From Rhodospirillales bacterium (GTDB lineage Bacteria > Pseudomonadota > Alphaproteobacteria > UBA828), in assembly GCA_028818565.1 (NCBI GenBank), contig JAPPNV010000307.1, positions 16,374 through 80,373 on the forward strand: DNA of 64,000 bases. Direction: 5' to 3'. Numbering within the stretch: the first letter of the stretch is position 1; each line of letters opens with the position of its first letter. The notes under the pieces were generated by a model. It had not been told where the DNA came from. It saw nothing but the letters and a program-made list of their open reading frames with translations, and searched no databases. Shown here in pieces: positions 60,015 through 61,067 of this stretch. The translations under genes were made by a program, and so were the position numbers.

Positions 60015-60059
60015 TTGACACTTTAGCCTTTTTGTTGCATTGTTACGAACGAATAGAAT
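60015..60059 (+). promoter_or_regulatory. sigma70-like promoter candidate upstream of the wHTH-VapC pair
   Basis: The region is AT-rich. TTGACA is at 60015-60020. TAGAAT is at 60054-60059, with a TTTGTT/TTGTTG -35-like element 17 nt upstream. The SD GGGGAA and the GTG start are about 30 nt downstream. Confidence 0.35.
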
Positions 60060-60087
60060 CACATCGTCGCGATCGGGGAATGGTGCC

Positions 60088-60642
60088 GTGCCGACAATCC
60101 GAATTTCTGACGAATCGATGCAGCGACTGAAGGCGTGGGCGGAACCGCTCGTGGACTCGGCAGACTCGGCCCTTGCGAAGGCGCTGGACGCCGCCGAACG
60201 CTATCGTGAGACGCACGCCCCATCGGCCATCGGCCCCGGCGATCATGCTCCGGGGCTACCGGAGAAGACCGTTAGAGAGCCCCTCATGGATGTCATCTAT
60301 GAGCGAGGTGGCAGCGCGAGCGGGCGCGATGTTTATCCGGCCCTGAGAGAGCGCATGAAGCACTACATGACGCCCGGCGATTTCGACCGAATCAACTCGG
60401 GCGACAATAGATGGAGAAGTACCGTGAAGTCGGCACGCGAAGACCTGGTTCAAGAGGGATATCTCCGCGACGATTCGCCGCGCGGCGTCTGGGCGCTGTC
60501 CGACGCAGGCGTCGCGTTGGTCGAGAGCCGGCGTGTGGCGTCCTCGGGGAGCTTCGTTGACCACCTCCTCGCGTTTCCGGATGTGGGCGAAGATTCCGAC
60601 TTCGATCAGCCGCGCTCGGGCCCGCGGCCGGTGGACCTGTGA
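60088..60642 (+). CDS. winged-helix protein (Mrr-N-terminal-domain-like), putative antitoxin/partner of VapC
   Basis: GTG start with GGGGAA SD gives MPTIRISDESMQRLKAWAEPLVDSADSALAKALDAAERYRE.... The C-terminal half (VYPALRERMKHYMTPGDFDRINSGDNRWRSTVKSAREDLVQEGYLRDDSPRGVWALSDAGVALVE) resembles the Mrr_N winged-helix domain. The stop overlaps the VapC GTG (GTGA). Confidence 0.5.
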   Translation: MPTIRISDESMQRLKAWAEPLVDSADSALAKALDAAERYRETHAPSAIGPGDHAPGLPEKTVREPLMDVIYERGGSASGRDVYPALRERMKHYMTPGDFDRINSGDNRWRSTVKSAREDLVQEGYLRDDSPRGVWALSDAGVALVESRRVASSGSFVDHLLAFPDVGEDSDFDQPRSGPRPVDL

Positions 60643-61067
60643 GCTATCTCGTCGACACCAATGTGGTGTCCGAGCTGCGCAAGCGGGAGCGCGCCAACCA
60701 AGGTGTCGTCACCTGGTTCCGGGAACGCGAGCCGGAGGAGCTTTATCTCAGCGTCCTGGTGATCGGCGAGCTTCGGCGCGGCGCCGCGCGCATCCGCCGC
60801 CGCGACCCGGCGTTCGGCGTCGTGCTCGACAGTTGGGTGGCAGAAATCGGCGAGCGGTTCAGCGACCGTATACTCCCTGTCAATCACGCCATCGCCGAAC
60901 GCTGGGGGGAGGTTAGCGCACATCCGACGTTGCCGGATGTGGACTCCCTCCTCGCCGCCACGGCACTCGTCCACGATCTCACCGTCGTGACCAGGAACGT
61001 GCGCCATATCGCGCCCTCCGGCGCGCGCTGTCTCGATCCGTTCGGCGGAACAGCCGGGATTTGCTAG
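60639..61067 (+). CDS. vapC: PIN-domain toxin VapC
   Basis: [27 protein letters not shown]... holds the D-x-N N-terminal acidic motif. The VVTRN and C-terminal D motifs are present. Confidence 0.8.

Follow-up and report, generated by a model that had tools for sequence, protein, structure and literature searches.

In canonical VapBC toxin-antitoxin modules, the gene for a PIN-domain toxin is coupled to that of an antitoxin in which a DNA-binding head of the AbrB, ribbon-helix-helix (RHH), Phd/YefM or helix-turn-helix type is joined to a toxin-binding tail. FitAB of Neisseria gonorrhoeae (PDB 2bsq, 2h1c and 2h1o) pairs the PIN toxin FitB with an RHH antitoxin, FitA, which is encoded upstream, has ~78 residues and consists of an N-terminal dimeric head followed by a tail at the C-terminus. 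In the Rv2018/Rv2019 locus of Mycobacterium tuberculosis, a COG2442 antitoxin domain fused to a winged helix-turn-helix (wHTH) adjoins a PIN gene, and Makarova et al. suggested that the extra wHTH could let transcription be regulated in more than one way (PMC2701414). Here we describe a two-gene locus in a 64,000-nucleotide stretch of DNA from a Rhodospirillales bacterium (contig JAPPNV010000307.1, positions 16,374 to 80,373; the whole stretch is hereafter referred to as the window) that is probably a chromosomal type II module of the VapBC/FitAB kind, composed of a FitB-like PIN toxin and a three-module mosaic antitoxin in which a SeqA_N-like head, a linker with an Mrr_N domain and a FitA/VapB-type tail follow one another. 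The locus resembles canonical VapBC in its coupled genes, its PIN toxin and the predicted combination of a DNA-binding head with a toxin-binding tail, and it resembles FitAB in the upstream position of the antitoxin, the predicted dimeric head and the C-terminal tail. However, the antitoxin has 184 residues versus the ~78 of FitA, its head is not FitA-like, and an 89-residue Mrr_N domain and a linker are placed between head and tail, whereby, unlike in canonical VapBC, two putative nucleic-acid-binding modules reside in one protein. The large PIN-associated antitoxin with an extra wHTH is shared with Rv2018/Rv2019 but, compared by domain content, COG2442/DUF433 and a generic wHTH are found there versus a SeqA_N-like head, Mrr_N and a FitA-type tail here. 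The literature searched contained no description of this architecture, no paper linking Mrr_N to antitoxins and nothing specific on VapB with a winged helix.

The antitoxin gene (60088..60642, + strand) encodes 184 residues from a GTG start to a TGA stop, and the VapC/FitB-like PIN toxin gene (60639..61067, + strand, 142 residues) begins with a GTG codon that overlaps this stop by 4 bp (GTGA, 60639-60642). An initial annotation of the window had proposed that a VapC-type PIN gene was coupled through GTGA to an unusually large, 184-residue partner; both open reading frames (ORFs), their overlap and the excess in length over FitA are borne out. Of the related loci, 31 have a full PIN gene, and each of them shows the same type of 4-bp overlap (NTGA); they belong to Alpha- and Gammaproteobacteria, Binatia, Thermodesulfobacteriota, Spirochaetia, Latescibacterota and other groups. 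The pairing of partner and PIN is, therefore, not due to chance, and the coupled pair recurs in several phyla. The PIN protein matches Pfam PF01850 (E 7e-15), and its nearest relative of solved structure is FitB of N. gonorrhoeae (E 3e-11). It is full length, carries all of the conserved residues and is 80-94% identical to its orthologs in 10 related genomes. Among 106 relatives, the catalytic residues D6 and E44 never vary; at position 102, 105 have Asp and one has Glu. The fourth acidic position is occupied by Asn (N120, 60996-60998), as it is in 96 of 106 PINs of the wider clade (Asp in 9), independently of the type of antitoxin. We rejected the reading of the toxin as inactive owing to N120, Asn being the norm of the clade, including those PINs that are paired with canonical antitoxins.

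The tail of the antitoxin (60541..60639, + strand, residues 152-184) is the predicted PIN-binding segment, as suggested by its homology to the tails of FitA-like antitoxins and its co-occurrence with PIN. Its consensus is SFVDHLLAxPDVGEDSDFDxxRSGPRxxxL, and AlphaFold modeled it as a short helix followed by disorder. Two related loci (L074 and L078) encode antitoxins of 76-91 residues with bona fide FitA-like RHH heads (PF22513, 59.5 bits), the tails of which (FADFLMSMPDVGEDSDFERPREFPREVEL) are clearly the same as the window tail; these antitoxin genes overlap PIN genes that are 46-51% identical to the window PIN. Seeded with the PIN, a scan of metagenome contigs recovered 80 loci, whose PINs share 43-55% identity with that of the window, and 75 upstream antitoxins. 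The heads of these antitoxins included 29 of the Phd/YefM type, 26 of the FitA-like RHH type and 8 of a third type, and none of the 75 had a SeqA_N-like head or Mrr_N. The tail query matched 18 of the 26 FitA-like antitoxins, and the tails of the Phd-type antitoxins were more divergent. The sharing of this tail with FitA-like antitoxins of related PINs therefore marks it as the probable standard toxin-binding end of the VapB/FitA lineage. A PDB search with a FitA-like relative did not retrieve FitA. As judged by sequence comparison, heads are shuffled onto a conserved tail and PIN in this lineage, as has been reported of type II systems at large (PMC2701414).

Between head and tail the antitoxin carries a variable Pro-rich linker (60208..60258, + strand, residues 41-57), modeled with a predicted local distance difference test (pLDDT) score below 50 and ranging from ~15 to ~60 residues in homologs, and an Mrr_N-type wHTH domain (60259..60525, + strand, residues 58-146) assigned with Pfam, AlphaFold and Foldseek. 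Residues 63-146 match Pfam Mrr_N (PF14338) with 32.1 bits, over a curated gathering cut-off of 29.5, and relatives score 47-53 bits. The AlphaFold model, built with 25 homologs, has a winged helix at residues 59-152 with a pLDDT of ~90. The top Foldseek matches of this model were wHTH proteins with weak E-values (4e-3 or worse); matches to the whole model were generic and none reached E <=0.001, because superposition suffers from the flexibility of head, linker and tail. A PDB sequence search with the partner profile produced a chance match only (IroE, E 0.58). The domain is conserved across phyla (G105, W109, L120, G124, G133, W135, L137 and G141 are invariant) with ratios of nonsynonymous to synonymous substitution rates (dN/dS) of 0.2-0.36 and is therefore functional. 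Thus, the resemblance to Mrr_N that had been noted at first is not spurious, and the winged helix is real; it lies, however, in the middle of the protein and not in its C-terminal half, and the last 33 residues form a separate conserved tail. Mrr_N (PF14338) is shared with the Mrr type IV restriction endonuclease, in which it is combined with Mrr_cat. In contrast, neither Pfam nor NCBIfam matched an Mrr_cat or PD-(D/E)xK nuclease domain in the partner, which ends in the antitoxin tail, and the nuclease of the window pair is a separate protein of the PIN RNase type. Plausible roles for the Mrr_N domain are to make extra operator contacts (tighter or extended binding), to bind elsewhere on the chromosome or to sense the state of the DNA. 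A comparison of upstream regions revealed no second DNA motif separating loci with Mrr_N (long form) from loci without it (short form).

The head (60088..60207, + strand, residues 1-40) is a predicted SeqA_N-like beta-alpha-alpha module for dimerization and operator binding, based on conservation, AlphaFold, hhalign, Pfam and NCBIfam. It is strongly conserved in the alignment of homologs (MPTIRISDxSMxRLKAWAEPLxDTADSALAKALDAAE) and was modeled by AlphaFold as an extended segment followed by helices at residues 8-18 and 25-42 (pLDDT 50-70). The head profile aligned end to end with SeqA residues 1-35 (sequence of PDB 1xrx_A; hhalign probability 83%, P 9e-6), and the NCBIfam SepA-family model matched partner residues 1-45 with an E-value of 8e-7, far under its cut-off. 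When 29 diverse heads were scanned singly, 17 matched DUF7557 (best E 3e-5) and 4 matched SeqA_N (PF17206; best E 4e-4), all below the cut-offs, and single weak matches were obtained to MatP_C RHH, BrnA, FitA-like_RHH (E 0.067) and RHH_1. A Pfam search of the window protein gave no match to FitA-like RHH (PF22513), and a PDB sequence search with the head profile retrieved designed repeat proteins only. Two head-only proteins carry the JGI name "negative regulator of replication initiation." SeqA-N is a member of the RHH superfamily, a placement for which we found no confirming paper in the literature searched. We conclude that residues 1-40 are a probable SeqA_N-like member of the RHH superfamily, at variance with the initial annotation, in which no RHH fold was recognized.

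When sequences upstream of 51 family loci were compared, GT(A/T)AC (GTWAC) boxes emerged whose starts are exactly 8 bp apart; they are located over or just 3' of the -10 element. The boxes are typically arranged as TGTTAC-N3-GTAACA, and arrays of three in a row also occur. Their density was 1.33 per 80 nt upstream of family genes versus 0.05 in general locus sequence and 0.14 in composition-matched shuffles (maximum 0.33 in 200 shuffles), an enrichment of ~9-fold over the shuffles. The predicted operator of the window (60034..60046, + strand) consists of two GTWAC-type boxes in 8-bp phase over the -10, GTTGC-ATT-GTTAC (GTTGCATTGTTAC), and is the only match to GTWACNNNGTWAC with one mismatch or fewer in the 64 kb. 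Each GTWAC box is a 5-bp pseudo-palindrome in 8-bp phase, the layout of tandem RHH dimers such as those of the MetJ metboxes. Because of this layout, we take the head to be the reader of the boxes and predict autorepression of the classical kind. In addition, boxes are present at the promoters of long and short forms alike, a further indication that the operator is read by the head. They are perfect in the short-form loci L057, L058, L060 and L061 and have one mismatch in L054 and L062, all six of which are without Mrr_N. In a generic repeat search, positions 59940-60110 yielded nothing beyond a direct repeat due to chance, and no inverted repeats; it took the comparison between loci to bring out the boxes.

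The core promoter was assigned tentatively from the same alignments. A -35 hexamer, TTGACA (60015..60020, + strand), is kept in most of the upstream regions of 12 alphaproteobacterial orthologs that were aligned, with divergence in L014 and L027, and is also found upstream of many distant family members. The candidate -10, CATTGT (60038..60043, + strand), lies 17 nt after TTGACA and is CATTAT, CATTGT or CATAGT in orthologs. A consensus promoter and terminator scan of positions 59800-61300 returned nothing at its threshold, CATTGT being below it. TAGAAT (60054..60059, + strand), originally annotated as the -10, is variable in orthologs and has no good -35 at 16-18 nt; we retain it as a weaker alternative.

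In the mechanism that we propose, the SeqA_N-like head would dimerize the antitoxin and read the short 8-bp-phased GTWAC boxes over the core promoter, leading to autorepression, and the tail would wrap the PIN domain and block its active site. The inserted Mrr_N would serve as an accessory DNA-binding or sensing domain, dispensable for holding the toxin. We infer the physical neutralization, the identity of the box-binding domain and the contribution of Mrr_N. Several points weigh against this proposal. The head of the window protein reaches no Pfam cut-off, and its comparison with FitA-like RHH (PF22513) heads yields an hhalign probability of 11%, in a register that is structurally as expected. 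SeqA-N serves in oligomerization and is not known to bind DNA. The window boxes are degenerate (one perfect, one 4/5) and weaker still in the closest orthologs. Further, the neutralization of the toxin by the tail is predicted from homology and co-occurrence; the fourth acidic PIN residue is Asn, which is typical of the clade and makes catalytic competence a prediction; and the neighbor-joining tree of 106 PINs described below has no support values.

Some of these observations would fit a division of labor like that of SeqA, in which the head only dimerizes or oligomerizes, Mrr_N reads the GTWAC boxes and the tail neutralizes the toxin. SeqA of Escherichia coli has a small dimerizing head, a flexible linker and a DNA-binding domain, an order mirrored by the window protein, and it is SeqA-N, which oligomerizes without known DNA contact, that aligns best with the head. 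Domains of the wHTH type are typical DNA readers, and the tail-less head and Mrr_N genes of L039 and L043 have perfect GTAAC-N3-GTAAC boxes upstream. Yet the window protein has Mrr_N instead of the SeqA C-domain, carries a putative toxin-binding tail in addition and stays below the Pfam SeqA_N cut-off. Short forms devoid of Mrr_N keep GTTAC-N3-GTAAC boxes in distinct lineages, with a PIN that is mostly intact (that of L061 is truncated), and 5-bp pseudo-palindromes phased at 8 bp are the usual layout for tandem RHH dimers such as those of the MetJ metboxes, unlike the sites of wHTH proteins. We regard this division of labor as unlikely and retain the head as the predicted reader of the boxes.

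Full-length homologs of the partner make up ~125 protein clusters (90% identity), almost all of 180-210 residues with PF14338. None of these clusters has a functional name, and NCBI labels one member "hypothetical protein." A partner-seeded scan with one genome per species identified 78 loci, all from metagenome-assembled genomes (MAGs), in Alphaproteobacteria/Rhodospirillales, Gammaproteobacteria, Binatia, Thermodesulfobacteriota/Dadabacteria, Spirochaetia, Latescibacterota, Dehalococcoidia, Solirubrobacterales and others. In a rough breakdown by partner architecture, ~34 loci had the long form with head, Mrr_N and tail (PIN intact in ~25, truncated in 2, a remnant in 3, absent in 4 and at a contig end in 1), 6 had the short form with head and tail (PIN intact in 5 and truncated in 1) and 13 had head and Mrr_N without tail, none of them with a PIN. 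The tail travels with the PIN, and the unit of head and Mrr_N is independent of it. The short form of L054 (P0119, 102 residues, 8 contigs) equals a P0065-like long form minus residues ~56-148, removed in frame; the flanks of the deletion are 93% and 83% identical, and the PIN of L054 is intact. The other short forms have 79-88 residues and occur in Gammaproteobacteria and Spirochaetia. In the neighbor-joining tree of 106 PINs, all head-associated PINs formed one clade, sister to L074/L078, inside which the short forms took three separate places. Since short forms are scattered in the tree and keep their PIN, Mrr_N has been lost repeatedly and is not needed to keep the PIN gene; it was probably ancestral in the head-associated clade.

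In Mrr type IV restriction enzymes, a domain related to the Mrr_N domain recognizes modified DNA. This kinship brings up a role in defense, whereby Mrr_N would sense modified or foreign DNA and release VapC in a phage-triggered abortive infection. Two other Mrr_N proteins (L059 and L071) adjoin large AAA/SMC-like ATPases, a defense-like context, and there is a precedent for multidomain antitoxins with a proposed sensor apart from the neutralizing domain: in PanA (Panacea) antitoxins, one domain neutralizes the toxin and another is a proposed sensor or regulator (PMC10440598). The window partner, unlike PanA, has no Panacea domain, and the analogy is conceptual only. Moreover, PADLOC-DB had no match to either protein of the pair at E-values up to 1, on which ground membership in known defense systems was rejected. 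No relatives were present in the IMG/VR, phage or plasmid collections, and the neighbors of the locus are housekeeping genes with no defense island. Mrr_N was lost about three times with the PIN kept, and binding of modified DNA by this Mrr_N has no support in our analysis. A defense function of this sort appears very unlikely. Wider in scope, and in our view distinctly unlikely as well, is a scheme in which Mrr_N is a DNA-state sensor that tethers VapBC to DNA that is modified or foreign, or else to another class of chromosomal sites, and couples this recognition to PIN release, the unit of head and Mrr_N, also found ahead of Fic proteins and on its own, being a new sensing-antitoxin chassis that spread horizontally among the phyla of sponge symbionts. 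In L059 (3635-6261, a Rhodobacteraceae MAG) and L071 (3617-6240, Methylotuvimicrobium buryatense 5G), the Mrr_N gene overlaps the ATPase gene; it encodes a protein of ~211 residues with a coiled-coil-like N-terminus and a C-terminal Mrr_N, and the ATPase has ~665 residues (MKFTRLVIENYKSFQ...).

The loss of toxin genes in part of the family bears on the role of the antitoxin itself. In three related genomes (L012:4001-4677, L014:4001-4632 and L027:4001-4680) the module occupies the same slot as in the window, with argD, argF and dihydropyrimidinase genes 75-98% identical, and a deletion took the last ~16 residues of the tail and PIN residues 1-112, leaving a remnant of residues 113-142 (76% identity). 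The partner ORF is intact in the three genomes, where it is only 46-56% identical to the window partner, and evolves with a dN/dS of 0.06-0.25 between them (dS >1, values rough). Such an orphan partner could have either a toxin-independent role or serve paralogous PINs in trans. It could also be proposed that the partner is mainly a host transcription factor, made of head and Mrr_N, with an acquired VapB tail, the PIN being a decaying passenger with little toxin-antitoxin function in this genome. The purifying selection on these orphan partners would suit this proposal, as would the PINs truncated or missing in ~10 loci, the existence of head and Mrr_N proteins without tail or PIN in Dehalococcoidia, Solirubrobacterales and Caulobacterales, and the position of a head and Mrr_N gene ahead of a Fic/DOC gene in L024 and L034. 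Against it, the window PIN is complete and conserved among the 10 genomes, as described above, no other GTWAC box pair is found in the 64-kb window and no wider regulon is visible, and the saturated dS makes the dN/dS values rough. We thus consider the transcription factor proposal highly improbable and, for the window locus, keep to a toxin-antitoxin module. In L008 (4567-5400), L025/L026 (4585-5260) and L033 (4594-5090), a partner with a complete tail has no PIN ORF downstream, the toxin having been replaced or eroded, and the truncated PINs of L018, L022 and L061 have 110, 57 and 43 residues, respectively.

The unit of head and Mrr_N is also found with other partners. In L024 (4001-5984) and L034 (4001-5984), a tail-less head and Mrr_N gene overlaps by 8-17 bp a gene for a 493-residue protein that matches Fic/DOC (PF02661, E 7e-17), and GTWAC boxes precede the head and Mrr_N gene. 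The Fic/DOC protein may be a second toxin partner of the unit, and the pairing hints at a reusable regulatory chassis. Free-standing head and Mrr_N proteins of ~160-185 residues, with neither tail nor PIN, are encoded at ~4001-4500 in L036-L046, L048 and L073 (MAGs of Dehalococcoidia, Solirubrobacterales and Caulobacterales). In L048 and L073 this protein adjoins an integrase-like ORF of 550 residues, and in L046 its gene lies 5' of a large methyltransferase-like ORF. L036 has, just 5' of its head and Mrr_N gene, another ORF (3394-3816) that encodes a head-like sequence (MPSIEISPATFQQLQAWATPLVDTPDSVLKKVLAMAAKNEQ) and lacks Mrr_N. Further, the head is fused in two Dehalococcoidia loci (L064:3998-4696 and L066:3998-4696) to an unrelated C-terminal region of ~190 residues without a Pfam match. 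Three of the homolog clusters (P0059, P0117 and P0118) are frameshifted or chimeric gene calls that pass from partner to PIN or leave the frame, and are assembly errors or pseudogenes.

The composite antitoxin is a rare, so far unnamed and lineage-restricted form, found mostly in uncultured, apparently sponge-associated bacteria. The new antitoxin architecture envisaged in the initial annotation stands insofar as the protein is large, rare and carries Mrr_N; the idea that it replaces a VapB-type antitoxin is not supported, as both standard ends of such an antitoxin are kept with Mrr_N inserted between them. No positive evidence emerged for the other suggestion made there, a PIN nuclease recruited to a DNA-recognition module, which may still apply as a secondary role. 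The locus adds to the known antitoxin architectures a FitA/VapB-type tail and PIN under a head that differs from the AbrB, classical RHH, Phd and Xre types, with an inserted Mrr_N. The family offers four natural experiments: Mrr_N deletions that retain the toxin, toxin deletions that retain an antitoxin under purifying selection, the head with Fic, and the tail on FitA-like or Phd heads. Through these variants the roles of the modules are directly testable. Our analysis also allows ~125 clusters of "hypothetical" proteins to be annotated and provides a concrete predicted operator in the 8-bp-phased GTWAC boxes. A new principle of toxin-antitoxin biology would follow only if it is true that Mrr_N is a sensor.

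Two features support 60088 as the start of the antitoxin gene: the MPTIRIS N-terminus, conserved in all homologs and ATG-initiated in many orthologs, and a Shine-Dalgarno-like GGGGA (60075..60079, + strand) 8 nt 5' of the GTG, part of a GAGGA/GGGGA block that is conserved in the upstream alignment. A 200-residue reading with a TTG start at 60040 was ruled out, as the conserved N-terminus starts at MPTIRIS, with ATG elsewhere. The module is placed between the genes for ornithine carbamoyltransferase (argF) and dihydropyrimidinase, in a slot that spans window positions 59038-62571. Its GC content is 0.60-0.68 versus ~0.70-0.72 in the flanks; over the antitoxin gene and promoter (59900-60650) it is 0.60-0.64 versus 0.70-0.72 in argF and dihydropyrimidinase. 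Relatives of the module were absent from PLSDB plasmids, IMG/VR and phage collections, and a mobile-element origin was rejected on account of their lack in PLSDB and IMG/VR. The lower GC of the module fits an old, acquired insertion.

Every family member came from a MAG or metagenome, with isolate names that include APA_bin, RHO1/RHO3_bin, SB0670, jk18x and ROBB21, and a contig identical to the window (L159, ENA ERZ23495468) came from sample ROBB21-1_SAMN13943215. The isolate names and the set of phyla suggest marine-sponge microbiomes as the habitat, and the occurrence of closely related modules in unrelated phyla suggests horizontal spread within it.

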